DNA from: an uncultured virus (IMG/VR IMGVR_UViG_3300025845_000008)
Taxonomy: Duplodnaviria; Heunggongvirae; Uroviricota; Caudoviricetes
Strand: one strand, 5' to 3'
Length of the DNA stretch: 64,000 bases
IMG/VR virus record: IMGVR_UViG_3300025845_000008
Span: 1-64,000 of that record
Under the pieces are notes generated by a model that was not told the origin of the DNA, made no database searches, and saw only the letters and a list, made by a program, of their open reading frames with translations. Shown one piece after another: positions 5,925-50,082 of the stretch. Made by a program: the position numbers and the translations under genes. The first letter of the stretch is position 1. Every line of letters begins with the position of its first letter.

Positions 5925-5949
5925 TAATAATTAGGAGGATAACAATATT

Positions 5950-32560: not shown

Positions 32561-35500
32561 ATGGCCGTTAACAGAATTTATGGCGCTATTTCAATAACAA
32601 ACAACCCTACAGGACTGACAACCAATCCAGAAAACGGTTCATTGAAGGGTATTAGTAAGGATATAATTTCCGATGGTGATATGGCTGTGGTTAGGGATAT
32701 CACCGGAGAATCCATTCATTTCTATACGTATGATGAATCTTCTAGCGCCATGGATGATAACGTTAAAGTCGTAAAACCGGAAGGCGGATCTGTTGGAAGG
32801 TGGTTAGTAACCTCGCCTAAGTATTTTGCTGAAAACATAATTGTTGACAGCGACAAGATGGTTCTTGTTAATAAAATAGCTCCTAATGGATCAAATCTTG
32901 TATTAAGTTATAACGGTACGTCTATTGATCTATCTATAGGATCATCTAACATAACCATAACAAAACCGCTAATAACAGATAAACAAATAACATCCACGGT
33001 CGTTGATGGTACTCCTGCATTTATTATATCAAGTTCTACTATGATCCCCAATTTAAGGGCTGAATATATAGGAAATACTTTACATAGTAATGTGTGGACT
33101 AAAGATGCATCTATTGCAGTTACAGGTGTTCCGGTTCTTGATGGTACATTAGATTCAATAACATCCATAACAAACGCAAGACATTTAACAACAAAAGATT
33201 ATGTTGATAATAAAATTTCCATTGTTAACTCTTCTTTTACAAAAGTACATAACAATCTTACAGGTCTAACTACAGGTGACCCTCATACCCAATATATGTT
33301 GGTAGATGGGTCAAGACCATTCAATAATAATATTAATTTCCCTAGAGTAAGCACGGATCTGGTAAACCCCATTAATACATATGATCTTGTTCATAAGAAA
33401 TATGTTGATGATAGGATTACTCTCATATCACAGGGAGATCTTTTTGTTACTGTTGACGGAAGTAGCATAGTAACCGCACCGATTTTATACGATGGTGCTG
33501 TTGATTTTTCTGCTTTGGATGCCCAAGATCAAGCCTTTGCTTCTGTTGATTATGTAAAGCAATCGTTTATCAATCATAATACCGGAATCACTCATACAGA
33601 GTACCTTATAAACAGTAGTAATGATACTATTGATGGTCATTTGTCCACGACACAGGCAGTAACTACAGCATCTAATCAATATATTACTAGAGGTGAGATT
33701 GATGCTTTCTTACGTGGAGTTTATAAAAACACTTACATGTCAGATTATTATATTGATATTGGTTCTGTTGTATATAATTCAAATATTGTAAGAAAAGATA
33801 GACCACGATCTGATAGTAATTATACATTCTCAAAGTTAGAATCATCAGGTTTAAATCTTGTGAGCTATGAATATCTTAGATCAAAAATATATAACATATT
33901 ACAAGGAAGTCCTGATGTAATCATAGGTGATGTTTTACGTTCTACCCTTATTAGCGGTAGTGATGGATACCTTAATGGTTCTGATGTAACTGTTCGTGGT
34001 GGCAGTGGAACTGGTATGGTTATTAATATAACCACTGACGGATCTGGAACTATAACAAGCTATAATATTGTTGATAGTGGAATGAATTATGTTGAACTTG
34101 ATACTGTATATGTAAATGGTACAAGTGGTGGATATGTTGTGGGGGATATCGTATCGGTTGATTCTTCGTTAAATGGCATTGGTGGTGAATTACGGGTAAC
34201 AGAGGTTGATTCTTATGGAAAAGTTATACAAGTTTCTGTATCCTTGTCAGGAAGTGGATATCAAGATGAAACGTGTACAACAACAGCTATACAGGGTCAA
34301 GGAACGGGTCTGACTGTTGATATAGTTGAAATTACGGTAGATGGACTTCTGTCGACACCAGAGGTAAGTATAAATCAATCAGGTGATGGTGACGGGAGAT
34401 ATAAAGTTGGTGACACAGTACGTTTGGTTGGTGGTAACAATGATACCGTTATAACTATTGATACTGTATTAGAATCAGGAGAAGTTACCGATTTTACAGT
34501 TACGAATGGTGGCACAGGTGGTATCTCCACAGGAACATACACAACTACATCGTTGTCAGGCGATGGTTTGGGTTTGACCTTTGATGTTGTTGATGGCGGG
34601 GACGGCATAGTTCAACAAGGTGAAATTAATATAAATGTACCCGGAACTGTACACGCATCGATACGACTGGACGAAACGGTTCGTGGTGCTTATCATTCAT
34701 ATCTCATTGGTAGTGGTGTGGGTGATGATCATACTCAATATATGCATATTGATTGTAGAAGAGGTTTTGATAATTCATTAAATTATCCACGAGTCAATAA
34801 TAGTAGTATAGAACCAACACAGCCGGGAGATCTCATAACTAAAAGTTATTTTGATAGTCGGGCGGGTTTATCTCAGAAATACCCTCATTACTATTTTACA
34901 CAGAATGTTGATACCTCTAATGACGAATCTAAAGAAAAGGTTAGAAAGGATTATGTTGATAGATATGTAGGATTATCCCTTGTATCTCCCACAGACAAAC
35001 ATTTTGACTATCTGTCAGAATCTTTTGTTGGTAATGGATGGGTTGGGGCATTGGATTCAACTTATAATGATGGTTCTGATAATGGTATCATTATAACAAA
35101 TAACTTCAAAAATTATGGAACAATTGTTAATTTTAATTTGATCAATGGTGGTAGTAATTTATTATCTATTAGTGCTGAACTAGATAGAATACCTTTAAAT
35201 TATCCAAGAAGTATTGGTGATTCTTCAACTTCGAGTGCCGAGGGTAGTGGCTTGTCCGTTGATACTACAATATCCGATGGATATGTTACCTATGTATCAC
35301 TTACGTATGGGGGTACGTCATACACTACTAACGGTTCTGGAGTATCAACGACAAGTTCTGGGTCTGGAATGGGTCTTTTGGTTTCGATTGAAAGTGATGG
35401 GAATTCTGTCACGAAAGTTACCGTGGATTCGGGAGGTTCAGGATATGTCACGGACGATGTTGTTTCTATATCAGGATCAGGTAATGGTGATGCAACTTTA

Positions 35501-36985
35501 GTGGTACAGTCAGTTTCGGATGGGGTTGTGACTGGTGTATCTATTAATGATGGTGGTGTTGATTATTCAGTTAATGATGTATTATCCATAGGAAATGTTG
35601 TAGGTTATAAAAATGGGGACACTGTAACTGTTGATGGAGGTACTACATTAGCATCTATTACTATAACAGGGGTTACCCCTTATGGTGATGTATTAACATT
35701 TACGGTTACGGATGGTGGTACAGGATATTCTATGGGAACAGATATATCAACAACAACTACTTCGGGTTTAGGTATTGGATTAACTTTTGATATAAATCCA
35801 ATTGATGGTATTTTAAGTACCGGTAGAGTTACTTTATCTAATAAAGGTACGTTAACAAAGTGCTTGGCTAGAGTTACATCGGCTGATGTTAACGGTACTG
35901 TTTCATCTTTGTCAATTATTCATGGTGGATCTGGTTATGCTTCACTGACAGAAGAAACAACAACTGGTATTGGCTATCCAACAATGGATATTTCAGGTAT
36001 AAATGTTAATCGAACAGAAACAAGTGTTGTTTTAGATGAATCAGGTGGAGGAGGAACAACTCTTGGTATAGTTCCGAGAATTATTGGTTCGATACAATTT
36101 GTATCTATAATTAATAGTGGTTATGGTTATCAGGTTGGTGATACAATTGATTGGTCAGGTGATGGTTCTTATGGTACATGGAAAGTTTCTGGTGTTGGAC
36201 CAGAAGGTCAGATATCGAAAGTATCAAGGCTATATTCTTCCGTATCTCAATGGTCAACCATTTCCATGAGAAGCATATCAACGACAAATGGTTATGGTGC
36301 CGTGGTAAAACCATACCTTGTTGGGTCAATTTCTGATTTTATATTAGAAGGAGGTTCCGGTTATGTGGCTAACAATTTTACTTATGATCCAACTAACTCA
36401 ACAAATGATGGGTTCTTTTGGTCTGGTTATGGAACCGCCGCAGGTGATACTAATTCAACTTCTACTAACTTTACGTTCCTTAACCAGCGAGATGAAAGGT
36501 TGGAGATTGGTCATTATGGCTCAGGTACTCTTGAGTCGAATGTCGGAGGAAGTGGTAGTTTCACTGTACCAGCAAGTTCGTCTATAACCGGAGTTCAATT
36601 TGATACATATGGTCATATAACAAACATATTAACCGGAATAACAACTATATCAGAATCTTGGTCTAAACAAACCAGTGATTTCGTATCCTCATTCGGATAT
36701 GCGTATTTTGTTGATACCAGTTCTGGTGCTATTACTGTTCAGTTGCCAGATACCGTTTCAGGTACAATCTTACCATCTATAGGGGATATTTTAATAATTG
36801 ATGATTATAAAGGCTCATCATCTGTTAATAATATAAAGATTCGAGCGCATGATAATGATGGAGGATCTAATAATATAATTATTGAGGGGGTGTCGTCTCA
36901 AGATTTAATTTTAGATGTTGATGGTGCTAAATTAACAATGATTTATGTTGATGCTGTTTATGGATGGAGATATAAAATATCATAA
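32561..36985 (+). CDS. long tail-fibre-like protein
   Basis: 1474 aa; HLTTKDYVD, DPHTQY/DDHTQY, many GGSG.G...G.GY repeats; C-term YFVDTSSGAITVQLP module. Confidence 0.75.
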   Translation: MAVNRIYGAISITNNPTGLTTNPENGSLKGISKDIISDGDMAVVRDITGESIHFYTYDESSSAMDDNVKVVKPEGGSVGRWLVTSPKYFAENIIVDSDKMVLVNKIAPNGSNLVLSYNGTSIDLSIGSSNITITKPLITDKQITSTVVDGTPAFIISSSTMIPNLRAEYIGNTLHSNVWTKDASIAVTGVPVLDGTLDSITSITNARHLTTKDYVDNKISIVNSSFTKVHNNLTGLTTGDPHTQYMLVDGSRPFNNNINFPRVSTDLVNPINTYDLVHKKYVDDRITLISQGDLFVTVDGSSIVTAPILYDGAVDFSALDAQDQAFASVDYVKQSFINHNTGITHTEYLINSSNDTIDGHLSTTQAVTTASNQYITRGEIDAFLRGVYKNTYMSDYYIDIGSVVYNSNIVRKDRPRSDSNYTFSKLESSGLNLVSYEYLRSKIYNILQGSPDVIIGDVLRSTLISGSDGYLNGSDVTVRGGSGTGMVINITTDGSGTITSYNIVDSGMNYVELDTVYVNGTSGGYVVGDIVSVDSSLNGIGGELRVTEVDSYGKVIQVSVSLSGSGYQDETCTTTAIQGQGTGLTVDIVEITVDGLLSTPEVSINQSGDGDGRYKVGDTVRLVGGNNDTVITIDTVLESGEVTDFTVTNGGTGGISTGTYTTTSLSGDGLGLTFDVVDGGDGIVQQGEININVPGTVHASIRLDETVRGAYHSYLIGSGVGDDHTQYMHIDCRRGFDNSLNYPRVNNSSIEPTQPGDLITKSYFDSRAGLSQKYPHYYFTQNVDTSNDESKEKVRKDYVDRYVGLSLVSPTDKHFDYLSESFVGNGWVGALDSTYNDGSDNGIIITNNFKNYGTIVNFNLINGGSNLLSISAELDRIPLNYPRSIGDSSTSSAEGSGLSVDTTISDGYVTYVSLTYGGTSYTTNGSGVSTTSSGSGMGLLVSIESDGNSVTKVTVDSGGSGYVTDDVVSISGSGNGDATLVVQSVSDGVVTGVSINDGGVDYSVNDVLSIGNVVGYKNGDTVTVDGGTTLASITITGVTPYGDVLTFTVTDGGTGYSMGTDISTTTTSGLGIGLTFDINPIDGILSTGRVTLSNKGTLTKCLARVTSADVNGTVSSLSIIHGGSGYASLTEETTTGIGYPTMDISGINVNRTETSVVLDESGGGGTTLGIVPRIIGSIQFVSIINSGYGYQVGDTIDWSGDGSYGTWKVSGVGPEGQISKVSRLYSSVSQWSTISMRSISTTNGYGAVVKPYLVGSISDFILEGGSGYVANNFTYDPTNSTNDGFFWSGYGTAAGDTNSTSTNFTFLNQRDERLEIGHYGSGTLESNVGGSGSFTVPASSSITGVQFDTYGHITNILTGITTISESWSKQTSDFVSSFGYAYFVDTSSGAITVQLPDTVSGTILPSIGDILIIDDYKGSSSVNNIKIRAHDNDGGSNNIIIEGVSSQDLILDVDGAKLTMIYVDAVYGWRYKIS

Positions 36986-37068: not shown

Positions 37069-38193
37069 TTGAAGTCATTAACAGTTGAATATGTTATAAC
37101 AGAACAATGCAATCTTAATTGTGAATATTGCTATATGAAAAATAGTAATACATATATGGATCTCGAAGGAACCCTTCATTTTATCGAAAATGTCCATAAA
37201 TTAATGGAAGTATATGGTAGTGATAAATACAATATATCATATTTTGGCGGAGAGCCTTTAATGAATTGGGGGTTGATTGAAAAGTCAGCCCCTTTATTCA
37301 AACAAGACCCTAGATGTGAACATCAGATAATAATAAGCAACGGTCTTCTTCTTGATGAAAATAAAATAAATTTCATAAAAGAAAATGAGATTGGATTTTC
37401 TTTCTCCTTTGATGGATTGTGGCAGAATAAAAATCGTCCACATGTATCACACGAGGATGTGTTTTCATTATATATGAAAAAAATTCCCCTTGTAAAAAAA
37501 CTTGTCGGTAATGGTGGGGGTAAAGTTATGGTATCCCCTAGTAATATTGATACAATGACAGAAAATTTTGAATTTTTTGTAAACGAAATTGGAGCTTATT
37601 TTCCAGATTTCAGTCTAGTTCGAGATGATATTTGGAGTGAGGATGATGTAAAAAGGTTCAAGGTTGAGAGCCGGAGACTTGCTGATAGAATTGTAAAATA
37701 TTACGAAGACGGTAAGGCGGTTTTTGTTGGGTTTTTTGGATTACATCTCATCGATTCTATATTAGGTTATAATAAAGGTAAAAGACCTTTTGGGTGTTTT
37801 GCGGGATGTTCTGGTGTTGGTTATATGCCAGACAAACAATTTTATTTATGTGCCAGATACGGATCAGGTGATTCTGATAAAAGTGGTCTTATAATGGATG
37901 TTAATGGTAATTTAAATCATGATTTGATTAATAAATATTTAGATCCAAATATTCATAACCCTAAATGTTACGAGGAATGCAAGGCATGTGATCTGTATAA
38001 ATTTTGTAATGCTGGTTGTACTTATTCACAGACACGTGAAGATGAACAAGGTAATATAACAGCAAAACCAGTAAAAAATGTATGTGAATTATATCATATT
38101 ATACAAGATGATGTATTTTATTTACACGATAAATTAAAAGATAATAAGTTATATATTGATTGTATGGTGAATCGTTATGGTAAATACTTTTAA
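37069..38193 (+). CDS. radical SAM/SPASM protein
   Basis: CNLNCEYC, FGGEPL, CFAG...C...CKACDLYKFCNAGC; TTG start after GGGAGA. Confidence 0.92.
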   Translation: MKSLTVEYVITEQCNLNCEYCYMKNSNTYMDLEGTLHFIENVHKLMEVYGSDKYNISYFGGEPLMNWGLIEKSAPLFKQDPRCEHQIIISNGLLLDENKINFIKENEIGFSFSFDGLWQNKNRPHVSHEDVFSLYMKKIPLVKKLVGNGGGKVMVSPSNIDTMTENFEFFVNEIGAYFPDFSLVRDDIWSEDDVKRFKVESRRLADRIVKYYEDGKAVFVGFFGLHLIDSILGYNKGKRPFGCFAGCSGVGYMPDKQFYLCARYGSGDSDKSGLIMDVNGNLNHDLINKYLDPNIHNPKCYEECKACDLYKFCNAGCTYSQTREDEQGNITAKPVKNVCELYHIIQDDVFYLHDKLKDNKLYIDCMVNRYGKYF

Positions 38194-38205: not shown

Positions 38206-38562
38206 ATGAGTGTAAAAAATATGTCAGAAGTTGTTAGAAAAATGATGGATATTGTTAATTTAATGGAAGAATGCCCTAGTACTCCCGAAAAGGATGCTAT
38301 TGTAAACTCCATGCTTAAATTATCATCCATGGTATTGAATAATTTGATGAATGGAAAATCGCCGATGAAGAATGATGGGAAGTGTGATAATCCTGATTGT
38401 AAGTGTGGTGGCAAAAACAATCAAGACGGTAATGGGTGTAATGGTCATACAAGTCAAGGTGGTAATCTTAGGTCTAATAATATATTACCTTCTGTTGATT
38501 TAAATTCTACGATAGAGAAAATAAGAGAAGAAATTAAAAATAGTAAAAATGAAAAAGACTAA
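38206..38562 (+). CDS. small Cys/Gly/Asn-rich protein in radical SAM cluster
   Basis: AAGGAG RBS; KCDNPDCKCGG...GCNGHTS. Confidence 0.7.
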   Translation: MSVKNMSEVVRKMMDIVNLMEECPSTPEKDAIVNSMLKLSSMVLNNLMNGKSPMKNDGKCDNPDCKCGGKNNQDGNGCNGHTSQGGNLRSNNILPSVDLNSTIEKIREEIKNSKNEKD

Positions 38563-39370
38563 TATTATATATTTGACGACAAGATGTAACCTTGGATGTG
38601 AGTATTGTTACGAGTCAAGAAAAAATCAGATACAGAGTGATGTCACGAAGGATCAAATTGATGAGTTTATATCTGAGATAGAAGTTCGTGAATCAGAATA
38701 CAATCAACACACGGTTGTTATTATGGGTGGTGAGCCAACTATAGTTCCCGATATGGTTGAGTATATAGCAGAAAAAATGATTTCTTCTAAAAAAACATTT
38801 AATGTTCATATGAACACTAACGGTATATTATTGGATAATGATGACTACAGGAATAAATTTTATGACTTGATTGAAAGATCTTCTGATAATGGTGTTAGTT
38901 GGCTAGTTTTGGTTAGTTATGATTGGAAAAATAACAACAAGAGGAAATTTAAAAGCGGTGAAACGTCTACTCATATAGTGGAGAGTACTTTACGTAAACT
39001 TAGTAATGAGGATAGACAGTTCGGTATATCATGCACTGTTTCATATGATAACTGTGAAGAACTTATGGACTATAGCATTAATATATTAGAAAGATATAAA
39101 ATTGTTAGATTGGTTTTTTCTTGGAATTACCAGAATATATCGAATCATATAGGACCTGGTTATATAAAACAGTTACAAGAGTATTATGATCCGTATATGG
39201 CTGAATTACAAAGAATGTACGATGTTAATATCTGTGGTTTTAATGGAAAAACGTGTTTTGAATGTGGAAATTGTGCAGGAATAGATTATGATGGTAATTT
39301 ATATTTAAGCCCAACAAAGGGTATATTGATAGAACCATCTACAACTTTCAAAGAGTTTGATAGATTTTAG
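38549..39370 (+). CDS. radical SAM protein
   Basis: CNLGCEYC, MGGEPT, TNG; short C-term CFECGNC. Confidence 0.9.
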   Translation: MKKTNIIYLTTRCNLGCEYCYESRKNQIQSDVTKDQIDEFISEIEVRESEYNQHTVVIMGGEPTIVPDMVEYIAEKMISSKKTFNVHMNTNGILLDNDDYRNKFYDLIERSSDNGVSWLVLVSYDWKNNNKRKFKSGETSTHIVESTLRKLSNEDRQFGISCTVSYDNCEELMDYSINILERYKIVRLVFSWNYQNISNHIGPGYIKQLQEYYDPYMAELQRMYDVNICGFNGKTCFECGNCAGIDYDGNLYLSPTKGILIEPSTTFKEFDRF

Positions 39371-39388
39371 GAACAATAAGGATTATGG

Positions 39389-40483
39389 ATGAGAATATTT
39401 CATATAGATATAAATTCGACAAGACAATGTAATTTAAGATGTAAGTATTGCTATGAGGCTAATAATAGTCTTATGGAGAATGAGTCATATAAAGATCCTG
39501 AAAACTTCATCAAGTTCTGTAAAGATTTCATGGAGTCCGATTTCTTTAAGAGTAATTATGATGCAATTAAAGTAAATTTTTGGGGCGGAGAGCCTTCACT
39601 TAACAAAGAATTATTTAACCATTTAATGGATGAGTTCTTAGAAGATAATAGAGTTATCTTTTTTATGTTTTCTAATGGATTTTATATAGATGATTATTAC
39701 ATAAATTTATTTAAAATGTTACAGAAGATAAAAATTAATAGCGAACCTAAATTTGTCATGCAGGTCAGTTATGATGGTGAAATTATTCATGACATAGATA
39801 GGGTTGATGTTAAGGGTAAAGGTTCTTCTGAGAAGGTTAGACAAACTCTACAGAAGCTTATTGATAACAATATATATTATGTTATGAAAAGTACTATATC
39901 CCCTAAAAACTTTAAACACTTGTATGAAGCATATCTTGATGTAAGTAAATTTTTACCCCAAGGACGTAGCTACTTTCCGACGATAGATTTGCATCTTTCT
40001 TATGAGGAAGGTGATGATAGTTATAAACAACATGGTCAAGATTTATATGAGCAATTGATAAAAATATCATCATACCAAAAACAAAACGGATTGGATAATT
40101 TTGTGTTTTTCTTTCCCAATAAAGCATTGTGTGCTGCCGGTGTTAGTATGATAGCAGTGGATATTAATGGTAATATATTACCATGTCATGGGGCTTTATA
40201 TACCAATTATGATGAACATCTTATTGGTAATGTTTCGGACGAGGATGCTATTGATAAAGTTATAAATAGTTCAAATTGGTTTAAAGACTTCTATACAAAC
40301 GTTCCAGAAGAATGTAAAGGATGTACAAATAAGTTTTGTTTGAAGTGTAATGTTGTGAAGTATGAGCATAGTGAGAAAGATAAATATGAGGAAAAATGGA
40401 CTGATCATACCTGTCAACCTTATCAATGTTATTTTTTTGATATAATAGATTTGGTTAGTAGGGCACATAGAATGGTTAGTTAA
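39389..40483 (+). CDS. radical SAM/SPASM protein
   Basis: CNLRCKYC, WGGEPS, CAAG..PCHG..CKGCTNKFCLKC. Confidence 0.92.
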   Translation: MRIFHIDINSTRQCNLRCKYCYEANNSLMENESYKDPENFIKFCKDFMESDFFKSNYDAIKVNFWGGEPSLNKELFNHLMDEFLEDNRVIFFMFSNGFYIDDYYINLFKMLQKIKINSEPKFVMQVSYDGEIIHDIDRVDVKGKGSSEKVRQTLQKLIDNNIYYVMKSTISPKNFKHLYEAYLDVSKFLPQGRSYFPTIDLHLSYEEGDDSYKQHGQDLYEQLIKISSYQKQNGLDNFVFFFPNKALCAAGVSMIAVDINGNILPCHGALYTNYDEHLIGNVSDEDAIDKVINSSNWFKDFYTNVPEECKGCTNKFCLKCNVVKYEHSEKDKYEEKWTDHTCQPYQCYFFDIIDLVSRAHRMVS

Positions 40484-40494
40484 GGAATTTAATT

Positions 40495-41565
40495 ATGGCA
40501 TGTAATGGGCATGTAAGTAGTACGGGTTGTCATGGTCATACCCTAACGGGGTGTGTAGGTCACATTAACTCATGTGGTGGTCATTCTGGATATTATCCAT
40601 CAAGGGCTGTTGCATTTACTAATAATGTAGCGGATTCTGGTGATATCATAGACTATGAGAATGAACTTAATGAATTAAGAGATGAACTGAATTATGAGGC
40701 GTCTAGGAGAGGATTAACTAATCTATTAATTCCCGTATTTGATCAACCAGTGGATGCACTTGAAATAAGAACCATGAGAGATACTTATGTGAGTATAACA
40801 GGGAACTGTGCAGATACCCCTATAAGTGATGCAGACATTGTAACAGGTGAACTAATACGTCCAATTACAGTAGAATCCATGTTAGAAGGATTTATCGATT
40901 GGGCATCTAATTGTACGTGTAACTGTAACTACTCTTGTACGTGTAACTGTAACTACTCTTGTACGTGTAACTGTAACTACTCTTGTACGTGTAACTGTAA
41001 CTATTGTGCATGTGATTGTGATTATTGTACATGTCAGTGTGCTTATGCTTGTACTTGTGATTGTAATTATGCTTGTACATGTGAGTGTAACTATTGTGCA
41101 TGTGATTGTAATTATGTTTGTACTTGTGATTGTAATTATGCTTGTACATGTCAGTGTGATAATGAGTGTAATTGTGATTGTAATTATGCTTGTACATGTC
41201 AGTGTGATTATGCTTGTACCTGCGATTGTAATCATGACTGTATTTGCGATTGTAATCATGCTTCATGTAGTTGTGATTATGCTTGTACCTGCGATTGTAA
41301 TCATGACTGTATTTGCGATTGTAATCATGACTGTATTTGCGATTGTAATCATGCCTGTATTTGCGATTGTAATCATGCCTGTATTTGCGATTGTAATCAT
41401 GCCTGTATTTGCGATTGTAATCATGCCTGTATTTGCGATTGTAATCATGCCTGTATTTGCGATTGTGCTTATGCTTGTACTTGTGATTGTAATCATGCCT
41501 GTATTTGTGATTGTTATTATGTAACATCGTATGTTCCTAGTGGATGTTATAGTCACAAAAATTAA
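40495..41565 (+). CDS. Cys-rich repeat protein, putative radical SAM substrate
   Basis: AAGGA RBS; 4x CxGH N-term, ~110-aa linker domain, 26 CxCxC-x-[YH] units. Confidence 0.8.
   Translation: MACNGHVSSTGCHGHTLTGCVGHINSCGGHSGYYPSRAVAFTNNVADSGDIIDYENELNELRDELNYEASRRGLTNLLIPVFDQPVDALEIRTMRDTYVSITGNCADTPISDADIVTGELIRPITVESMLEGFIDWASNCTCNCNYSCTCNCNYSCTCNCNYSCTCNCNYCACDCDYCTCQCAYACTCDCNYACTCECNYCACDCNYVCTCDCNYACTCQCDNECNCDCNYACTCQCDYACTCDCNHDCICDCNHASCSCDYACTCDCNHDCICDCNHDCICDCNHACICDCNHACICDCNHACICDCNHACICDCNHACICDCAYACTCDCNHACICDCYYVTSYVPSGCYSHKN
40912..41514 (+). repeat. 21/24-bp coding tandem repeat array
   Basis: TGTACGTGTAACTGTAACTACTCT x3+ and TGTATTTGCGATTGTAATCATGCC x5 plus degenerate copies. 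Confidence 0.95.
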
Positions 41566-41579
41566 TAGGAGGTTAAAAA

Positions 41580-42164
41580 ATGTTGGCTGTTAAGATATTT
41601 CCTTTAGATGAAAAGAAAGCTAGAATAACAGGTTCTGGTGATATACCAGAAGGGAGCAGTGATCCTACAGTGTATATAGGTGTTTCAGATGAAGTGTATA
41701 AATTTGTATGTGATAACATCGAAGAACATATATTAATCTGTCCTAGAAACGTGGAAGAATTGAAAGTGGATATGATAGAGGTTAAGGCTGCCAATATTCT
41801 AATAGAGTTAAAACATACAGCTGTAAAGGCATACAAAAATTTCCATTTGGGTAGAGTTATGGATCCAGAATTTCTCATTACATTTATAGATTATACCATG
41901 TTGAATAATAAATTTTGTTCACATGGGTTTTTTATAACACAGGATAATAAAGAAGAGATGTATCTTGACATACTGAATACCGGTGATATGTCACTTATAG
42001 AATCATTGGAGCGATACCTTAATGTTTCTGATAAAATATGTGAGTATTGGTGCCATACGGATAATTTAATTAAATTCAAAGAAGAAATTTATAATGCCGA
42101 AAGTAGGGAAGAATTGGAAGAGATATATAAAAGGTATTGTTACGGTCAAAGTTTCATTAAGTAA
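41580..42164 (+). CDS. hypothetical protein (possible fibre assembly chaperone)
   Basis: AGGAGG RBS; C-term KEEIYNAESREELEEI. Confidence 0.6.
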   Translation: MLAVKIFPLDEKKARITGSGDIPEGSSDPTVYIGVSDEVYKFVCDNIEEHILICPRNVEELKVDMIEVKAANILIELKHTAVKAYKNFHLGRVMDPEFLITFIDYTMLNNKFCSHGFFITQDNKEEMYLDILNTGDMSLIESLERYLNVSDKICEYWCHTDNLIKFKEEIYNAESREELEEIYKRYCYGQSFIK

Positions 42165-42168
42165 TTAA

Positions 42169-43035
42169 ATGTTTAGCGATAAAAACATTATATTATTCGG
42201 TTTGGTATTAGATGCCGAATCTAACATTACTCCAATGGGGTCATTATATGACGCATTGGAGTATTTTATGTTTATATATAAGCATAACAAAGATGTACAT
42301 CTCATCTTTAATATAATTAAGATTAATCGGTATGTTAAGGATGTAAAAATAGAAAGTATAAAGAATGAAATAGTAAAAATAATCAATGGTAAATATGACA
42401 TAAGCGATTACTCATTTATGGGTAATGTTCATGTTCTGAATTTAAAAGACTTGTTCTTTAAAAATAAACCAAATATAGTCATGACTGTTGATCTTACGAT
42501 GCCTTTCGGCTTTAAAAATTTTATGTGTAGAGCTAAAGAAGTCATAATAATACCTGAATATACGACCAGTATGTATTACTATAAATCAAAAAAGAATAAG
42601 GTTACCTATTTTACTGAAATGTCATTTTGTTATTCAGATGTCCCTTATAAAATGAAGATTGATTTTGAATCGCATAAGAAGATAGATAAGTTTGATAATA
42701 AATTATATGTTAATTATCCAAAGTATGATGCTAAAAATAGACCAGAAGTGTTAGATTTTGCCTGTGATATAGGCAAAGAATTGTTGATTAAAGAAGATCG
42801 ATATTTCTATGATCTTCATGAAAGGTTTGATGAATATGTTTATTTTCAATCGGATAGATGGTTTGATCCTCACCCAAGATTATTTCATGAATGTAAATTA
42901 TACAATAAACCCTATCACTATAAGAGTATTGGTGTAAAGGATGGATCTTATTATCGATATAAAGATAGTCTGGCCGAGAATCTTAGTGACCGACAACTGA
43001 CAAAGGATGATATTATTGTTAAAATGATGTCTTAA
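42169..43035 (+). CDS. GT-B-like glycosyltransferase candidate
   Basis: DPHPRLFHE..LYNKP resembles the [DE]x7E motif; weak similarity to 53434-54261. Confidence 0.45.
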   Translation: MFSDKNIILFGLVLDAESNITPMGSLYDALEYFMFIYKHNKDVHLIFNIIKINRYVKDVKIESIKNEIVKIINGKYDISDYSFMGNVHVLNLKDLFFKNKPNIVMTVDLTMPFGFKNFMCRAKEVIIIPEYTTSMYYYKSKKNKVTYFTEMSFCYSDVPYKMKIDFESHKKIDKFDNKLYVNYPKYDAKNRPEVLDFACDIGKELLIKEDRYFYDLHERFDEYVYFQSDRWFDPHPRLFHECKLYNKPYHYKSIGVKDGSYYRYKDSLAENLSDRQLTKDDIIVKMMS

Positions 43036-43056: not shown

Positions 43057-44169
43057 ATGAAGGTTTTTTCTGAGAATGAGTGGAGTCCCCTGAAAGAAGT
43101 TATTGTTGGTTCTGCTTTTTCTGATTACGTTTTTGATGTCGACCTATCTTTTAAGTTGTTTTTTCGTGATAATTATTCTTGGGGAGCCAGAAAAGGATCC
43201 CCAGAAAGAATTGTAATAAAAAAGAAATATGTAGATGAATTACAAGAAGATGTTGAATGTTTTTCCGAAACACTCACAGACTTAGGTATTAATGTACACA
43301 GACCAAATGATATAAAAAAGGTCGTTAGGGTTAAAACTCCTCATTGGTCAACAGAAATAATTCCAGCACTGAATGTTCGTGATCAGACCGTTATACTCGG
43401 TGATACTATTCTTGAAACATCACCATGTGTGAGGAATAGATATTTTGAAAACGACCTCATGAAAGACATTTTTTATGAGGGTTTTCTTGATGGGGCTAAT
43501 TGGATGGTGATGCCTAGACCTATCATGACCGATAACAGTTTTGACAGGAACCTTTTAGATCACAAGTCAAAGTTGAACTCAATACCAGACAAACCGTTCG
43601 ATCATAGCGATTTGTTCCTAAACCCAAACGATATCATACCTGATGCTAATGACCTGAAAATACATGAAATGATGATTGATGGCGCTCAACTGGTACGTTT
43701 TGGGAAAGATATCATAATCAATATTTCCAACAAAAATCATTACTTGGGGTACCTGTGGATTAAAAGACAATTCCCTCAGTATAATTACCATCCAGTTTAT
43801 TCGCTGTGTGATAACCATTTGGATACACTGATAGTTCCTCTATGCGAAGGTGTTTTGTTGTTAAGGTCTAAGAAGTTTGAAGAATTCCTACCCCCATTTC
43901 TAAAAGATTGGAAGATCATATATCCACCTGAGATAAGAAGTGATATGTTCCCTAAATATGATTCAACCGACCTTATATTAACATCACCATATATTGACAT
44001 GAACATATTATCGGTTGATGGTAATAAGATAATTGTAAATGAGTTGTTCCCTGAACTATCTGAACTGTTGTATAGTGAGGGGTTTGATCCCATTCCAGTG
44101 CGACACAGACATAGGAAGATATTTGCTGGTGGATTCCACTGTTTCACATTGGATCTGTTGAGAGGTTAG
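43057..44169 (+). CDS. amidinotransferase (glycine/inosamine-phosphate amidinotransferase family)
   Basis: ENEWSPLKEVIVG, NVRD, HLD, GGFHCFTLDL (catalytic Cys). Confidence 0.9.
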   Translation: MKVFSENEWSPLKEVIVGSAFSDYVFDVDLSFKLFFRDNYSWGARKGSPERIVIKKKYVDELQEDVECFSETLTDLGINVHRPNDIKKVVRVKTPHWSTEIIPALNVRDQTVILGDTILETSPCVRNRYFENDLMKDIFYEGFLDGANWMVMPRPIMTDNSFDRNLLDHKSKLNSIPDKPFDHSDLFLNPNDIIPDANDLKIHEMMIDGAQLVRFGKDIIINISNKNHYLGYLWIKRQFPQYNYHPVYSLCDNHLDTLIVPLCEGVLLLRSKKFEEFLPPFLKDWKIIYPPEIRSDMFPKYDSTDLILTSPYIDMNILSVDGNKIIVNELFPELSELLYSEGFDPIPVRHRHRKIFAGGFHCFTLDLLRG

Positions 44170-44925
44170 ATGGAAGTACAAGGAAAAAGGGTGATGTTTG
44201 GGCCACCAAGAGGATATACATCTTCTATATGGGATTATTTTAAGGTTCTTCCCGATTATCATACTCACAAAACCAAAGAGTTTGACAGGGATACGATTCA
44301 TGCCATGTCTGACGAAGATGCTTACAAAGAGTATTTACAAGGATATGATGGTTCGAAGCCATTTATAGATTGTTGTTTGTTGTATTATAACAACCATGCC
44401 AACTTATCGTTTATTAAGGATTTGTTATTTACCGATCTGGACTGCTCTGTGTATAATGTCAGGTCATACAAAGCCGCCGTAAAATCTTATTATCTAATGG
44501 TTATGAGAACCATGAATAAATTTTATATGGTCGATGATTTTGAATACTACGACCAAGCAGGTAAAGATAGGTTGTTTGATTTTGCATATAACCGATTCTC
44601 TGTTGAATGGCATCTAAACTATATTAAAAATACCTGTAGGTATAAAGGTGATGTATATTTCGTGCAAGGTGTTGATATACATGAAGTGATGAACACCTTT
44701 AATATGAGAATACCGAATTATGGATTACAGAAACTTAATTCGACAGCATCACATCTTGTGATTAAACCAAGACTCAAGTATATGCTTGAAAGGTTTAGAG
44801 AGTTCGAGCGGTACTGGTCAGACAATATAGAAAAATGTCATGCTGTTAGGGAGAACAACATTAAGATACTGAAAGAATCAAGATTCATAGGGAAATTTGA
44901 CGAGGATTTATATAGACGTGAATAA
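44170..44925 (+). CDS. sulfotransferase-like P-loop protein
   Basis: MFGPPRGYTSSIWDY...H.HKTKEFD resembles the PAPS-binding N-terminus. Confidence 0.55.
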   Translation: MEVQGKRVMFGPPRGYTSSIWDYFKVLPDYHTHKTKEFDRDTIHAMSDEDAYKEYLQGYDGSKPFIDCCLLYYNNHANLSFIKDLLFTDLDCSVYNVRSYKAAVKSYYLMVMRTMNKFYMVDDFEYYDQAGKDRLFDFAYNRFSVEWHLNYIKNTCRYKGDVYFVQGVDIHEVMNTFNMRIPNYGLQKLNSTASHLVIKPRLKYMLERFREFERYWSDNIEKCHAVRENNIKILKESRFIGKFDEDLYRRE

Positions 44926-45898
44926 CAACCAAAAAATAAATCGAAAGTATTTAGAGCCTTTAATGAACTGGTGTCAAGAACATCCTTTAAGTGAGTTTGG
45001 TGTCATATATGATAATGAGAGATACTTTGCTGATTATCTTGGCGTTAAGACATTCAAGTTTGTGAATTCTGGCACATCAGCATTAGATTTGATAATGAAG
45101 AGAATATCTATCGATAGACCTAAACCTCTGATCTATGGACCCTCATTCTGTCATGTATCATGGATCAATGTTTGTGAATGGAATGACTTTGAATATTATT
45201 TTGTTGATGTTAAGGAAGATACCCTATCTATTGATCCCGTAAAATTGAAGGAGATGATCGTAGAAAAAGGAGTTCCTGATATCGTTGTTATGGTTGATAT
45301 GGGTGGTTACGTTGGCGATGATACGTTGACTGTGAGGGAGATATGCGACTCTCATGGTATAATTTTGGTTGAAGATGCCGCGAATGCCTTCGGTCAACAG
45401 TATAAGGGTTATAAGGCTGGAACTATTGGTGATTTCTCATTCTTCTCATTTTCCAATCCCAAACTTCTGACGTGTGGTGAGGGGGGTGCTATTGTATGTA
45501 ATGGTGACGACTTTAATGATTCTTTTGAGGAAATGATTTATCAGGGTGGATGGTATAAATACGGAAAGTCCAGACGAACAAATGGTCTAAATTATATTAT
45601 GTCTAACTGGATGACTCAGTTATTAAGATATCAATTAGATGATGTAAACGTGATACAAAAAGAACGTCATGATCAGTTTTTAGTATATTCAGATAAATTT
45701 AATTTATTTAGATATGAATCTGATAATAAATATTATTCACCAAGTTACTACTGCTACAGACAGAAGGGGATATCAAAGAAGATCCTTGAAAGGGTGCCTA
45801 GTCTTGAAATGCACCGATATAGGAATCATGACTCTCGTTGCACTGTTGGTGGGATTCTAGAGGACGAACTTGTATATCTCCCCATGGAGTATAAATGA
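44897..45898 (+). CDS. DegT/DnrJ/EryC1/StrS PLP aminotransferase
   Basis: VNSGTSALDL, EDAANAFG, SFSNPKLLTCGEGG; true start may be GTG 44918. Confidence 0.92.
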   Translation: MTRIYIDVNNNQKINRKYLEPLMNWCQEHPLSEFGVIYDNERYFADYLGVKTFKFVNSGTSALDLIMKRISIDRPKPLIYGPSFCHVSWINVCEWNDFEYYFVDVKEDTLSIDPVKLKEMIVEKGVPDIVVMVDMGGYVGDDTLTVREICDSHGIILVEDAANAFGQQYKGYKAGTIGDFSFFSFSNPKLLTCGEGGAIVCNGDDFNDSFEEMIYQGGWYKYGKSRRTNGLNYIMSNWMTQLLRYQLDDVNVIQKERHDQFLVYSDKFNLFRYESDNKYYSPSYYCYRQKGISKKILERVPSLEMHRYRNHDSRCTVGGILEDELVYLPMEYK

Positions 45899-47205
45899 AA
45901 GTATTACTTATAGATCTACCATTATTAAACTTCAAAACAGATGACTATAATATTGGGTTGTGCTATCTATTGGGGTACATGAAGCATAACAACGTGGAAT
46001 GTGAGTCAATAGATTTTCGTTATAGTGATTATGTGCAGAGTCATATAAAGAATCCAACCGTATACACTTCCACAGAAAAGTATGAGAAGTTTAGAAACGA
46101 CAAGAAGAGGGCTGACTGGTTTAGAGAGACAGTAGAAAAGCCTAGATTATATGTTGAGTTTTGATGTTATAGCGTTCAGTATATTCTTTGAACTAAACAA
46201 GATACATTTTGATGAAATGTATGAGATAATAAAACCTCATCTAAAACCACACCACAAGGTTGTGGTTGGTGGTAATTATCTCAGCCACTACGACCATCAT
46301 CTTGAATTCGAAGACCTTGATGTTGATGTTGTTGTTGGACCCGGCGAACCCTACTTTGAGAAATTATTTGATCTTCCACATATAGATCTATATTCGTATA
46401 ACCAAGTTCTGCCTAGACACCTTCCAGCAGCATCTATGCCCGTTTTAGTGGGTTTGGTTGTATCCATAAATGTTTGTTCTGTACTCACAGAAGACAGAAA
46501 TTCTTCTACAGGAAGGTTGACTACATCATCAAGGAAATGTTGTACTGGAAACGCACAACAGGTCGGTTCAGATTTAACATCAGAACAGATAATATATTCA
46601 ATAATTATAAGTACTTAAATGACCTAACAAAAAAGTTGACCATAGTCAATAGATCATGGGATGGTGAAAAACTCCAATGGTCTGCCAATGCGACACTATG
46701 GGATTTTGATGGATTCATGAAGAACGTTAATAAGAATGACTTCATAAAGTCTGGATGCAGGATATTAAGTGTAGGTGTTGAGTCTTTTAATAAAGAAGTT
46801 CGTGACTCTATGAATAAGCCTGAATATGAGAATGAAGAGTTAGCTAAATGGTTTGATTTTGCGTTGGAGAACGATATAAAAATATATGTGTATCTTATGG
46901 TTGGTTATATAACAGAAACGGATCAACAGTTTGATGATGGTTTGATCGCTCTCAAAGGGTTTTTTGACAGGTACAGTGCTTGTATAGGGGATGTTGCTAT
47001 CTCTTTTTATACGATTCATAGCGAATATAATTATATCGGATATGAGGATCAAATAACATTTGATAGTGATGGTAATTGGATATACAAAGATAATATACAT
47101 GAGAAAAGAGTAGACAGGGTTAGAAGGCTTAAAGAACTTTCGATGAACTATGATGTTCATCCAAGATTAATGGGTACAGATGATAATGAAAAAAATGAGG
47201 TATGA
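45895..47205 (+). pseudogene. B12-binding radical SAM enzyme split by two frameshifts (or sequencing errors)
   Basis: NIGLCYLLGYMK / DVIAFS..VVGGNY..VVGPGE / GCIHKCLFC...SGCRILSVGVESFN..YLMVGY..ET spread over ORFs 45895, 46151 and 46474. Confidence 0.75.
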
Positions 47206-47208
47206 ATA

Positions 47209-48332
47209 ATGTTATATTATAATCCGTTTGCTATAGATAAACTTCTACGAAGGAGGGATGAGGCGTATGGATTATTCCATCTTAATAGAGCCGCCGCGCA
47301 TAAATTTGATAGAACTGGCCTTTTTACCATGTTTGATGTAGGAGATAAAATCAATTTCAAATCAATGTTTGGTCTGCCTGATTTCTCTACACCATATAAC
47401 AAGAACTTCGAAGACACTGCTATGGCAACGGCACAAAGAATTGTCGAGAACAACGAACCATTTAACCTTTATTGGTCTGGTGGTTTAGATTCAACAACCG
47501 TTCTGATATGCCTCCATCAGTGGTGTGACCGCATAAAAAACCGAATGAAGGTTATAATGACAGAGGCTTCTATAAGAGATAATAAGTATGCTTATGATAC
47601 TATAATTAAGCCTAATTATGAACACGTGGTCTGTGAGGATTTCGGTGGAGCGCAGAATAATTATTCACTGGATTATATGAATGTGACTGGTGATGCTAGT
47701 GAAGCCATTTATGGATGGTCTGGTATTCTCCAAAACTTCATGAAGGAACTTGGGGTGAAAGGTTTGTATATAAAGCTCAAAGATATCCCCAAATTAAAGA
47801 GCAGATTAAGTCCAGATAATTATACAACATTTGAATATTATTTGAAATTGTATGAACTGATCAAGGTGACCCTACCAGCATGTCCTATTGATATTGTTGA
47901 TATTCAGGATCTTAACTGGTGGTTCGTGTTTAATTTCTGCTATCAATATGACGTGTTGAGGTTCATGGTTCCTTATTACAGGAACTATGAAAAGTGTTGG
48001 GCGAACATGAACGCTTTTTTGCTAATGATGACTGGCAGTTATGGATATATAACACATACGAATCTACCATGAAGGGCGTAACCGACTTCAACTATATGAA
48101 GAAAGATGAGATTAATTTCATAAAGAGACATTATCCGAAGATTGATCTGTCTCATACGTTACCAAGAAAGACAAACGTTCATCTGAAATACCTAGCACCA
48201 AAGGACTTCTTACTGATAGGTGATGACTATAACATTGTTGATTGTCCTGGCTATCTAGAGACGACAAAAAAGGAAATGATGGAGAATTATAAGAACAAAC
48301 CACTAGAAGAAGTGCAAATGTTGTTTGATTGA
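47209..48332 (+). pseudogene. PP-loop (SGGLDS) adenine-nucleotide alpha-hydrolase-like protein, frameshifted at T6
   Basis: YWSGGLDST, VTGDASEAIYG, WWFVFNF; -1 shift at T6 (48015-48020) continues FFANDDWQLW. Confidence 0.65.
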
Positions 48333-49153
48333 TGAGAACTACTACGCTTGTACTGACAACGGATTGTAACTGGAATTGTAGCTACTGTAACGTGGCAAAG
48401 TTCGGTAAATATATGACCAGTAGAGAGAAGATTGATCGCCACCTTCCCTATATTATGGAGTTGATAGGAGACTATAACTTCGTTTTAGCGGGGGGTGAGA
48501 TTGGTCTGGTAGATCCTGATATCATTTCTAATCTGATGGTATCCATAGGAAAGCCAGTTACAATCAATACTAACGGGTTGTTTATGGAAATGGGGTATCA
48601 CAATATACCAGAAATACGTAATAATATCGACAAGATATACTACCATGTTAATGATAGACCAAATACTGCCCCGATCTATATCGACAAAGACCTTGATATA
48701 CTGTATGGTATAGTTAGTGATAATATTGAGACTATAATAAGTTTTATATCAGCCAACAAAAACCTTGATATCTCGTATATAGGTCTGGATAGTGCTTTCG
48801 ATGATACACACATGGATTACTTCAAGTTATTGCTATTGGCTAGAGAGTTTTTTAATGTGACCGATGATGCTGTACGTCAATTAGAGCATTACTGTTTAAA
48901 ATACAACCACTTAGGGAAGTATCGCAGGTACTGCAAGGCAACCAGTTTCACCATTGATCTAGCTAAAGAGGTCATATGTCTCTGTGCTTTTAGGAACAAG
49001 CATATTGATATTCCTCTGACCAGAGACAATTTGAAGAAAGTTATATCGCAGACGAATGTCTTTCAAGGTGATGACAGTTGTGACACATGCACCAGAGTGT
49101 GTCTGGATACAAACATAGAGGTAAACATTAGAGATATGTTGAGGAGACGATGA
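48329..49153 (+). CDS. radical SAM protein
   Basis: CNWNCSYC, GGEIGL, TNGLFME, C-term CDTCTRVC. Confidence 0.88.
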   Translation: MMRTTTLVLTTDCNWNCSYCNVAKFGKYMTSREKIDRHLPYIMELIGDYNFVLAGGEIGLVDPDIISNLMVSIGKPVTINTNGLFMEMGYHNIPEIRNNIDKIYYHVNDRPNTAPIYIDKDLDILYGIVSDNIETIISFISANKNLDISYIGLDSAFDDTHMDYFKLLLLAREFFNVTDDAVRQLEHYCLKYNHLGKYRRYCKATSFTIDLAKEVICLCAFRNKHIDIPLTRDNLKKVISQTNVFQGDDSCDTCTRVCLDTNIEVNIRDMLRRR

Positions 49154-50082
49154 AGAAGACAACCTTTGCTGATTTTAAAAAACAATGGTATTTCAGTTTA
49201 ACCGAATATTGTAGTTGGAAGTGTTCTTATTGTGACTTTCCATGTAAAACTGACCCAAAAGTTGCTCCAATTGAATATGTAGAGGAAGTATTTGACCGCA
49301 TCAAGAGGATCACCAATTATGACCAATCCATAGAGTATTGCCTTGAAGGTGGAGAGATTGGGTTGTTTGATCAGGATTATCTCGATAGAGTGTTTAATAG
49401 TGGTCTTTCTGAAACATACAACGTTGCTACTAATGGTCTGTTCATGGAGAAAAGTTATCATAAGAGATATTCCGACAAAATCCATTATATTCTATATCAC
49501 ATTGCTCCTGAGATATATGACGGGGTGAAGTATAAGGAGTATGATTTTGGTGATATTCTGTGTTACTATACCTTTGTTATAAACAAAAATAACCTACCTA
49601 TTTTGGATAAGTTTCTAACGGATAATCTTGATTCTAAACACCGGTTTCTGCCTCATATACTTCAACCAAGAACACCCGGTTTGGATCTGTTGACCTATGA
49701 TGACTTTATACAAATGTATGATATCATTAAGGATAAATCGAATGTGAAACCAGATTTCATTGAGAGAGTGGTGAGGATTATTGAACGGCACAATGATGAA
49801 CCGTGGTTGGACTCTCACAGAAAAATTTGTGCCAGTGTGTATACACAACCTATCTTTGATTTACCAAATAAGAGGGTTAACCGATGTTGTATATCAATCA
49901 CTGGTGATTCAGTTGATATTACAGATGATAATTTAGAAAGGTTGTATAAAAATAAAATAATGTTTAGTTCATTGAAAGATTCTGTGTGTGATGGGTGTAT
50001 TGCTAATTTTTTATGGCACGATTGGAGACACAGGAGATATATGAAAGAGATTATTAAGATACATAAGGGTTTTAGTTCATGA
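49150..50082 (+). CDS. radical SAM protein
   Basis: CSWKCSYC, GGEIGL, TNGLFME, RCC...CDGC. Confidence 0.88.
   Translation: MKKTTFADFKKQWYFSLTEYCSWKCSYCDFPCKTDPKVAPIEYVEEVFDRIKRITNYDQSIEYCLEGGEIGLFDQDYLDRVFNSGLSETYNVATNGLFMEKSYHKRYSDKIHYILYHIAPEIYDGVKYKEYDFGDILCYYTFVINKNNLPILDKFLTDNLDSKHRFLPHILQPRTPGLDLLTYDDFIQMYDIIKDKSNVKPDFIERVVRIIERHNDEPWLDSHRKICASVYTQPIFDLPNKRVNRCCISITGDSVDITDDNLERLYKNKIMFSSLKDSVCDGCIANFLWHDWRHRRYMKEIIKIHKGFSS

Follow-up and report, generated by a model that had tools for sequence, protein, structure and literature searches.

This account concerns one gene and its neighbours in a 64,000-nucleotide stretch of DNA (the window) from an uncultured tailed virus (Caudoviricetes), positions 1 to 64,000 of the IMG/VR record IMGVR_UViG_3300025845_000008. 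The record is 75,472 bp long and is estimated to be 32% complete, with all long open reading frames (ORFs) on one strand. At 40495–41565, on the plus strand, the window encodes a protein of 356 residues with 83 cysteines, 78 of them from residue 140 on, where the chain becomes a tandem array of short units built on the pattern C-x-C-x-C-N-Y. An earlier note on this DNA, made by a model from the letters alone, had placed the gene directly after three radical S-adenosylmethionine (SAM) genes, and so it is: they start at 37069, 38549 and 39389, and we call them rSAM1, rSAM2 and rSAM3. The repeat protein belongs to a family, its genes recur beside the same enzymes in distant phages, and in some relatives the array runs straight into a domain typical of tail fibres. 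From these observations we build the case for a virion protein that may be cross-linked by the three enzymes.

The repeat protein and its relatives

At the DNA level, Tandem Repeats Finder places 26.0 copies of a 24-bp period at 40911–41521 (82% matches, score 452). In translation these become 25 canonical C-x-C-x-C units and one degenerate unit whose first cysteine has changed to serine. The earlier count of 26 tandem units holds if the degenerate one is included, but the spacing is mixed. The 24 spacings measure 8 residues in 20 cases, 7 in three and 15 in one (across the degenerate unit), so the array is not purely 8-periodic. A total of about 83 cysteines had also been given correctly, though 78 of them, and not 77, lie from residue 140 on. 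The three identical 24-bp units at the array's start (CTCNCNYS) and the five near its end (CICDCNHA) are there as described, and so is the drift from tyrosine to histidine. Position 7 of the canonical units is Tyr in 14 and His in 10, with the His units confined to the second half. Cysteine makes up 38% of the array, and every unit contains two overlapping C-x-x-[N/D/Q] motifs, one from C1 to position 4 and the other from C3 to position 6.

Ahead of the array the non-repetitive part runs to 139 residues, not the roughly 110 given earlier. It opens with four C-x-x-H motifs (C3, C12, C20 and C27) and continues into a region that AlphaFold2 (AF2) predicts well. The run was made on a natural 198-residue form of the protein, as a monomer, with a 52-sequence alignment. 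Over residues 31–140 the 10-residue block means are 79–95 in AF2's per-residue confidence score (pLDDT), with helices at 54–71, 88–102 and 123–137. The part before the array had been proposed as a possible leader; some 100 residues of it are confidently predicted to form a folded domain, and it is not a short leader. The model has no Foldseek match in PDB or BFVD at E ≤ 1e-3. Its best VIA-align match, the BARA domain 3vp7 (Z 7.2, root-mean-square deviation 3.5, 109 aligned), lies inside that tool's stated noise range, and a profile of the long-tailed members of the family has no match among PDB sequences. The gene itself begins after an 11-nt spacer from the last radical SAM gene, with AAGGA 9 nt ahead of its ATG. 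Other long ORFs cross the array on both strands, and only the 40495–41565 frame has an N-terminal domain with homologues; the others are by-products of the repeat.

A HMMER search against 1.84 billion representatives brought up 331 relatives at E ≤ 1e-3, and 84 at E ≤ 1e-10. Leaving out the window's own short form, 127 of the 149 matches listed have at least three C-x-C-x-C units. The matches span the N-terminal domain too (query 1–200), as in P0005 (E 2e-47 over query 19–207) and P0006 (E 2.3e-47); P and L numbers here denote proteins and loci from our searches. Across 838 units in 127 proteins the consensus reads C, T (71%), C, N (62%, with D 22% and Q 9%), C, N (85%), Y (85%) and an optional A, S or G, at spacings of 7 residues in 367 cases and 8 in 304. 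The common architecture is a start of the M-A-C-x-G-H type, C-x-x-H motifs in variable number (none to about nine), a helical domain with E-x-x-R-R-G, and then the array.

The window protein has the E-x-x-R-R-G domain, units of 7 or 8 residues, and rSAM1, rSAM2, rSAM3 and a conserved 194-residue partner as adjacent genes; its array matches phrog_26958 (E 4.3e-10). What had looked like a singular oddity is the most expanded member found of a family defined by a strict 7/8-residue unit. Among the matches listed the median is six units per protein and the maximum 18; the window's 25–26 make the longest array found in this analysis. Its second half is also unusual in carrying Ile for Thr and His for Tyr, since His stands at position 7 in only 4% of family units. 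The earlier note was right that the spacing is unlike that of SCIFF, CXXX-repeat and Cys-every-fifth precursors: no NCBIfam precursor family matches the protein.

A word-based search with residues 1–140 matched only the window's own short form, so HMMER was needed to see the family. With the whole protein, tblastn found no match in 50,697 phage records; the low-complexity filter probably explains this, since blastn did match the repeats of Campylobacter phages. A degenerate DNA pattern of the unit, scanned over genome contigs, hit six loci. Three of these hold family members, all on contigs of metagenome-assembled genomes (MAGs), two of them with radical SAM homologues upstream; the remaining three have no Cys-repeat ORF. 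An NCBIfam scan of 52 family members gave nothing meaningful (TIGR04117 was touched by one of them, at E 0.23). As a lead only, PF27846 is found on 19% of the members of an Atlas cluster near the repeat protein.

The same phage is present in three other virus contigs, with versions of the protein of 364, 356 and 356 residues, the differences being one unit and one Ala/Asp change. The 198-residue form (P0004, on a 217,819-bp contig) has identical ends and about six units, some 20 fewer; either it is a genuine deletion variant, or the assembly collapsed the repeat. In two DNA runs the Logan contigs are interrupted at the array. Two metatranscriptome runs contain only pieces of 151 and 54 nt, which do not show transcription. 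The runs carrying the phage are aquifer and hot-spring metagenomes.

Some relatives run past the array into other domains, as P0016 (520 residues) and P0015 (682 residues) do. One post-array domain in this group starts C-F-L-A-G-T-P-V-L, which we take to resemble Hint/intein-type autoprocessing domains. Other members carry a second, N-terminal set of units.

Three radical SAM enzymes and their linkage to the repeat gene

Linkage was tested in both directions. The forward test took loci found via the Cys-repeat protein family, the phage's own three left out (n = 33, several of them near-duplicates), and looked within 8 kb. At least one rSAM1, rSAM2 or rSAM3 homologue is present in 27 of the 33 and all three in 18. 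These lie mostly directly upstream, on the same strand, with a homologue of the 194-residue gene downstream. The reverse test started from an alignment of rSAM1 orthologues, which led to 78 loci, each scored for an ORF with at least three units within 10 kb. Such an ORF is present in 27 of the 36 loci, the phage's own left out, whose rSAM1 homologue is at least 34% identical, and in none of the 41 with other radical SAM genes, of 31% identity or less. Twenty-two contigs were new to the reverse search; 14 of them have a unit ORF, and to these come one 71-residue family remnant and one variant with six-residue units. A two-way linkage that is specific to orthologues, while the enzymes are only 34–57% identical, argues for a functional unit.

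All three enzymes have the radical SAM motif at the very N-terminus. The best NCBIfam match of each is the ranthipeptide maturase PapB (NF047865; 114.7 bits for rSAM1, 61.7 for rSAM2 and 103.3 for rSAM3, against a cut-off of 340), followed by QhpD, SCIFF, CXXX-repeat, anSME and other peptide maturases, all far under their cut-offs. The SCIFF maturase TIGR03974 scores 69.4 bits on rSAM1 and 48.2 on rSAM3 (cut-off 425), with no match to a precursor family, which for SCIFF has six Cys in 45 residues; the CXXX-repeat maturase TIGR04115 scores 69.2 and 64.6 (cut-off 350); and the CrpC family TIGR04463 scores 54.9 on rSAM3 (cut-off 525). By these profiles, no enzyme of the three belongs to a named family. 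Of solved structures, rSAM1 is closest to 5WGG/5WHY, the enzyme CteB (5WHY is so named in PMC13692751). The alignment (E 2.9e-15) pairs query residues 10–321 with chain residues 103–420, and thus starts without that enzyme's N-terminal part. In 15 orthologues of rSAM1 the invariant cysteines are C14, C18, C21, C243, C261, C304, C307, C313, C317 and C339; the last seven form a SPASM-type set (C243, C261, C304-x2-C307-x5-C313-x3-C317, C339), although Pfam SPASM is not reported for this protein. Pfam detects no SPASM domain in rSAM2, whose orthologues in related loci are 25–41% identical to it.

Two loci depart from the usual order. In L040 a small ORF (5749–6078) with a C-terminal C-G-C-G motif lies between the rSAM1 and rSAM2 homologues; it looks like an A-type (IscA/HesB-like) Fe-S carrier. 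In L080 a divergent member of the repeat family (12427–12894) has six-residue units, C-x-C-[ND]-x-[ND], without the third cysteine. This single case directly follows rSAM1 and rSAM3 homologues, and no rSAM2 homologue was found in the locus.

By analogy of architecture, the closest characterised system is CrpA/CrpC of Methanococcus voltae. In the parts of the published account used here (Dieter et al. 2026, PMC13692751), CrpA is a 28.8-kDa Cys-repeat protein whose C-X-X-Q/D motifs receive ranthionine bridges from a SPASM radical SAM enzyme, and these motifs are like the two overlapping C-x-x-[N/D/Q] motifs of each phage unit. CrpA is likewise a full-size protein with a folded or conserved N-terminal part, a C-terminal Cys array and an adjacent SPASM enzyme. 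There are also differences. The CrpA unit has 17 residues and occurs ten times, whereas the phage unit has 7 or 8 and occurs up to 26 times. CrpA is served by one enzyme with a RiPP recognition element (RRE; RiPPs are peptides made on the ribosome and modified after translation), the phage protein by three candidates that lack an N-terminal RRE extension. CrpA comes from an archaeal cell, the phage cassette lies in a tail-fibre module, and rSAM3 is not a member of TIGR04463.

PapA/PapB (freyrasin) and the SCIFF pair CteA/CteB resemble the cassette in a different way, through the best NCBIfam match (PapB) and the best structural match of rSAM1 (CteB). Both enzymes reportedly act on repeated cysteines with Asp, Asn or Thr acceptors nearby. 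Their substrates, however, are short peptides that carry leaders, and the phage candidate is a protein of 150–360 residues that has a folded domain, to which some relatives add a fibre chaperone domain. The CXXX-repeat system (TIGR04115/TIGR04117, PF27846) shares a Cys-repeat target and a SPASM maturase, but its target has cysteine at every fourth residue and the phage array at every second.

The only cultured phages in which the module was found are Campylobacter phages (15 of the 50,697 records). CP220 (gp140), CP21 (CP21_105) and CPt10 encode a 534-residue phrog_26958 protein with six C-T-C-D-C-N-Y units, encoded by a 21-bp repeat. It differs from the window protein in having another, larger N-terminal part and a Cys-containing C-terminal part, and in the layout of its genes: an rSAM3 homologue lies 2.3 kb from the Cys-repeat gene (L034/L035) and an rSAM1 homologue elsewhere in the genome. 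On a MAG contig, a protein like this 534-residue Campylobacter type has rSAM2 and rSAM3 homologues directly upstream. The CP220 genome paper of 2010 (PMC2853527), in the passages relevant here, noted only a 21-bp repeat inside a coding sequence and called the many radical SAM genes highly unusual. The main text of the virion proteome paper on phage IBB_35 makes no mention of the Campylobacter homologue, and a full-text literature search found no description of the phage cassette or of the unit motif.

A candidate cross-linked fibre protein

The link to fibres comes from the far end of the repeat protein. Among 131 family members, 15 have a tail of 66–90 residues straight after the last unit, 49 have a short S-D-x-x-L-K stub and 67 have neither. 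Twelve of the 15 long tails score above the Pfam cut-off for PF13884, Peptidase_S74 ('chaperone of endosialidase'), the best at 62 bits, and match from profile position 1. The S74 domain follows the array directly in these 15 members, at an S-D-x-R-L-K start. Fibres and spikes are where S74 domains are known to occur; in known fibres (endosialidase, the phage T5 fibre type) they follow a triple β-helix without cysteine repeats. Many tail-fibre families in PHROG have C-termini that match the tail of P0066. A PHROG scan of 12 related loci (57 of 179 ORFs of at least 170 residues, mostly upstream of the cassette) finds tail or tail-fibre PHROGs within 10 kb of the cassette in eight of them. S74 in relatives, together with tail-fibre neighbours, argues for a modified structural protein and not for a RiPP natural-product precursor or a secreted peptide.

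Several loci have two to four Cys-repeat paralogues in tandem (L043:7491–9548, L045:6129–8693, L010:7911–9055, L012:7407–8555 and L018:7923–9145). L043 has three and L045 four. Only the middle one in L043 has a full S74 domain, its neighbours a short stub, a pattern that would suit assemblies of mixed chains, one of them providing the chaperone.

On balance we lean, from sequence, towards a virion protein of fibre type in whose repeats the three enzymes make cross-links, probably as thioethers of the cysteines. The conserved two-way linkage across distant phages makes a substrate role in thioether-type cross-linking the best reading, because this class of enzyme modifies peptides and proteins at cysteine and the Cys unit is the only strictly conserved repeated feature adjoining it. 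The thioether substrate proposed in the earlier note survives, and a RiPP natural-product precursor is disfavoured. Two other readings in the note, Tyr/His cyclophanes and a metallothionein-like or Fe-S polymer, find neither support nor contradiction in these data.

How might such a protein be made? The Cys-repeat gene would supply the substrate of a cassette comprising three radical SAM enzymes (two of them with SPASM), a small ORF and a helical partner. Its product would have the build of a small fibre component: a C-x-x-H stretch, a folded domain of about 100 residues (perhaps for docking or recognition), a rod of C-x-C-x-C-N-Y units and, in some relatives, the intramolecular chaperone and autoprotease domain of trimeric fibres. 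The three enzymes would act in the reducing cytoplasm of the infected cell, linking the repeat cysteines to nearby side chains by thioether bridges of the ranthionine or sactionine type, with the two overlapping C-x-x-[N/D/Q] motifs of each unit as the candidate sites. It is tempting to suppose that each cysteine of the unit might have its own enzyme. Cross-linking would yield a rod, insensitive to redox state and resistant to proteases, in, or attached to, the tail-fibre apparatus. The window's protein is an extreme case, with a recently expanded array (25–26 units against the median of 6), His for Tyr in its second half and the chaperone tail lost.

A number of points weigh against this reading. 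We infer the action of the enzymes on the Cys-repeat protein, and likewise the thioether chemistry, its place in the virion and its oligomeric state. All enzyme scores are far below curated cut-offs, so the chemistry is not readable from homology. All seven positions of the unit are conserved, which would also fit a metal site or a solenoid laddered with Asn, Tyr and Cys. The earlier note had expected homologues to keep radical SAM neighbours, as 27 of the 33 forward loci do, but six have no partner in the fetched flanks. One of these is cut at a contig edge; the other five are on contigs without any radical SAM match that are only 7–33% complete, so absence there proves nothing. In the reverse direction, nine of the 36 loci have no Cys-repeat partner in the fetched flanks, and in the Campylobacter phages the module genes are dispersed. 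The window contains at least six further radical-SAM-like genes downstream, which brings the phage's total to nine or more, so that the argument from adjacency is weaker here than in other phages. In the AF2 monomer the array has a pLDDT of about 40 and gives no structure for or against a rod. Finally, the window protein differs from S74 systems, and from many of its own relatives, in having no Pfam S74 match and no S-D-x-R-L-K motif, so its fibre character rests on relatives and position.

Three other explanations deserve a hearing. The repeat could be an unmodified structural element, either a solenoid with ladders of Cys, Asn and Tyr or a triple β-helix, held by disulfides or packing, while the enzymes act on another fibre protein, the small ORF, or a sugar or cofactor pathway. 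Ladders of Asn, Tyr, Thr and Cys are typical of β-solenoids; S74 chaperone domains normally follow triple β-helices, and in relatives S74 comes directly after the array. The window also has many other radical-SAM-like and sugar-modifying genes nearby. And yet the orthologue-specific linkage holds in both directions though rSAM1 is only 34–57% identical, a fold of strict period sits badly with a single array that mixes spacings of 7 and 8, and AF2 predicts no solenoid even with 52 sequences. Disulfides, for their part, would be unlikely to form in host cytoplasm, the habitats being anoxic or microaerobic, as the aquifer and hot-spring runs suggest. We consider this account unlikely, if the strongest of the three.

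Marginally less likely is a RiPP-like product that is no part of the virion: the N-terminal domain would serve as leader, and the modified rod, released by cleavage or lysis, would act on the host or on competitors. A leader with a repeated core and enzymes of peptide-maturase type is what one would expect of such a system; tandem paralogues (three in L043, four in L045) would suit it; and the Ser and Lys of S-D-x-x-L-K could be a release site, going by the S74 mechanism. However, scans with Pfam, NCBIfam and PHROG recognised no protease or exporter gene in the cassette, tail-fibre genes lie near the cassette in 8 of 12 loci, and S74 is known from fibres and spikes, the matching PHROGs being tail-fibre families. 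Least probable of the three, in our estimate, is a polymer that binds metal or Fe-S (metallothionein-like, or an iron/sulfur store or scaffold) and serves the phage's radical SAM enzymes with its Cys and His left free. The 38% cysteine of the array, the His gathering in its second half and the N-terminal C-x-x-H motifs would suit such a role, as would a phage that encodes nine or more radical-SAM-like proteins and the presumed A-type Fe-S carrier inside the cassette at L040:5749–6078. But no metallothionein or Fe-S family in Pfam or NCBIfam matches the protein, the Asn and Tyr of the unit are conserved to the same degree as its Cys, which is foreign to metallothioneins, His is at position 7 in only 4% of family units, and a fibre chaperone directly after the array in relatives is ill-suited to a cytoplasmic metal store.

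The cross-linked fibre can be taken further, and we do so tentatively, as a possibility that falls short of being probable. Many large phages might use three radical SAM enzymes, dedicated to the task, to staple a fibre of the virion after translation. Each unit would be a small thioether-bridged cage with two or three bridges, which would come to at least 50 per chain in the window protein. The covalently laddered rod would do the work of disulfides without needing oxygen, in phages whose hosts are anaerobic or microaerophilic, and would be the first case of RiPP-type maturation of a virion component. If the cross-linked fibre is real, radical SAM peptide-maturase chemistry, so far known from small antibiotics and a few cellular proteins, builds virus particles as well, as a new kind of post-translational modification of virions. 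The wealth of radical SAM genes in Campylobacter phages and their relatives from the environment, a puzzle raised in the CP220 genome paper (PMC2853527), would then have an explanation too. There would further be a natural scaffold, open to genetic expansion, on which to make protein rods with many thioether bridges. The window protein and the natural 198-residue form are convenient substrates, with many identical units in long and short natural versions.

The cassette and the genes around it

Table 1. Positions in the window of the cassette genes, the parts of the Cys-repeat protein and the flanking ORFs
Feature	Position	Strand	Basis or remark
Fibre-like structural protein, 1474 aa, last of the tail/baseplate/fibre module just upstream of the cassette	32561..36985	+	PHROG context (after sheath, tape measure and baseplate genes)
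rSAM1, radical SAM, C-terminal SPASM-type 7-Cys motif, without N-terminal RRE extension	37069..38193	+	Pfam Radical_SAM 40.7 bits
Small ORF, 118 aa	38206..38562	+	A mostly helical small ORF holds this post-rSAM1 position in most related loci; sequence poorly conserved
rSAM2, short radical SAM enzyme, 273 aa, four Cys clustered near the C-terminus	38549..39370	+	Pfam Radical_SAM 53.4 bits
rSAM3, radical SAM/SPASM enzyme	39389..40483	+	Pfam Radical_SAM 32.7 bits; SPASM 26.9 bits (cut-off 21.5)
Cys-repeat protein residues 1–33, four C-x-x-H motifs	40495..40593	+	Translation, family alignment
Cys-repeat protein residues 34–139, predicted three-helix folded domain with conserved E-x-x-R-R-G	40594..40911	+	AF2, alignment
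Cys-repeat array, residues 140–343, 25 canonical + 1 degenerate C-[T/I]-C-[D/N/Q/E]-C-N-[Y/H]-(A/S/D/C/V)	40912..41523	+	Repeat finding, translation
Short C-terminal tail and stop codon, without the S-D-x-R-L-K motif and S74 domain of many relatives	41524..41565	+	
Conserved partner, 194 aa, directly 3' of the Cys-repeat gene in most related loci	41580..42164	+	blastp homologues in 22/33 loci; phrog_25260
ORF, 288 aa, often syntenic with the cassette	42169..43035	+	Homologues in L012, L015, L020/21, L022, L024, L026, L033; phrog_14526

The cassette has tight gene spacing, a ribosome-binding site and no predicted terminator inside (Table 1). It comes after a run of PHROG matches to tail sheath, tape measure, and baseplate hub and wedge, followed by very large proteins. 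No cultured phage has a tail sheath more than 31% identical to this one, the best match being that of a T4-like Pelagibacter phage. Segments homologous to the 1474-residue protein adjoin the cassette in L015, L017 and L054. The 118-residue ORF has a blastp match outside its own phage only in L054 (E 7e-6). For the 194-residue partner, AF2 predicts a small β/α N-terminal domain and a helical bundle at a mean pLDDT of 91; a fold search with this model gave no Foldseek match at E ≤ 1e-3, and the best VIA-align matches (Z 8.3) are generic helical hairpins.

Upstream, a 2536-residue structural protein (19379–26989) matches an HNH-endonuclease family of PHROG locally, at residues ~2029–2102. The same HNH-type PHROGs match repeatedly within the 1576-residue tail fibre of L066, and because of these repeated matches they may stand for a repeat of fibres rather than a nuclease. 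One subgroup of five related loci has a gene for about 245 residues that matches phrog_9148, annotated as UDP-glucose dehydrogenase. In four of them the rSAM3 homologue has this gene directly upstream (L061:8079–8810, L070:8147–8887, L072:8129–8869 and L084:8177–8911); in the fifth (L065:6327–7064) the gene is about 1.8 kb upstream.

Downstream of the cassette, a 370-residue ORF (43057–44169, phrog_25854) ends in a G-G-F-H-C-x-T motif, presumably that of amidinotransferase/deiminase-type enzymes, and a 54%-identical homologue lies beside the cassette in L015. A second block follows at 44897–53453, from a DegT-type aminotransferase (44897–45898) to a glycosyltransferase (52887–53453); by its gene content it looks like a sugar or cofactor modification pathway. 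Within it, a weak, below-cut-off B12-binding match at 46151–46618 overlaps a radical SAM ORF at 46474–47205, the two possibly being one split gene, and five further weak radical-SAM-like ORFs lie at 48329–52890.

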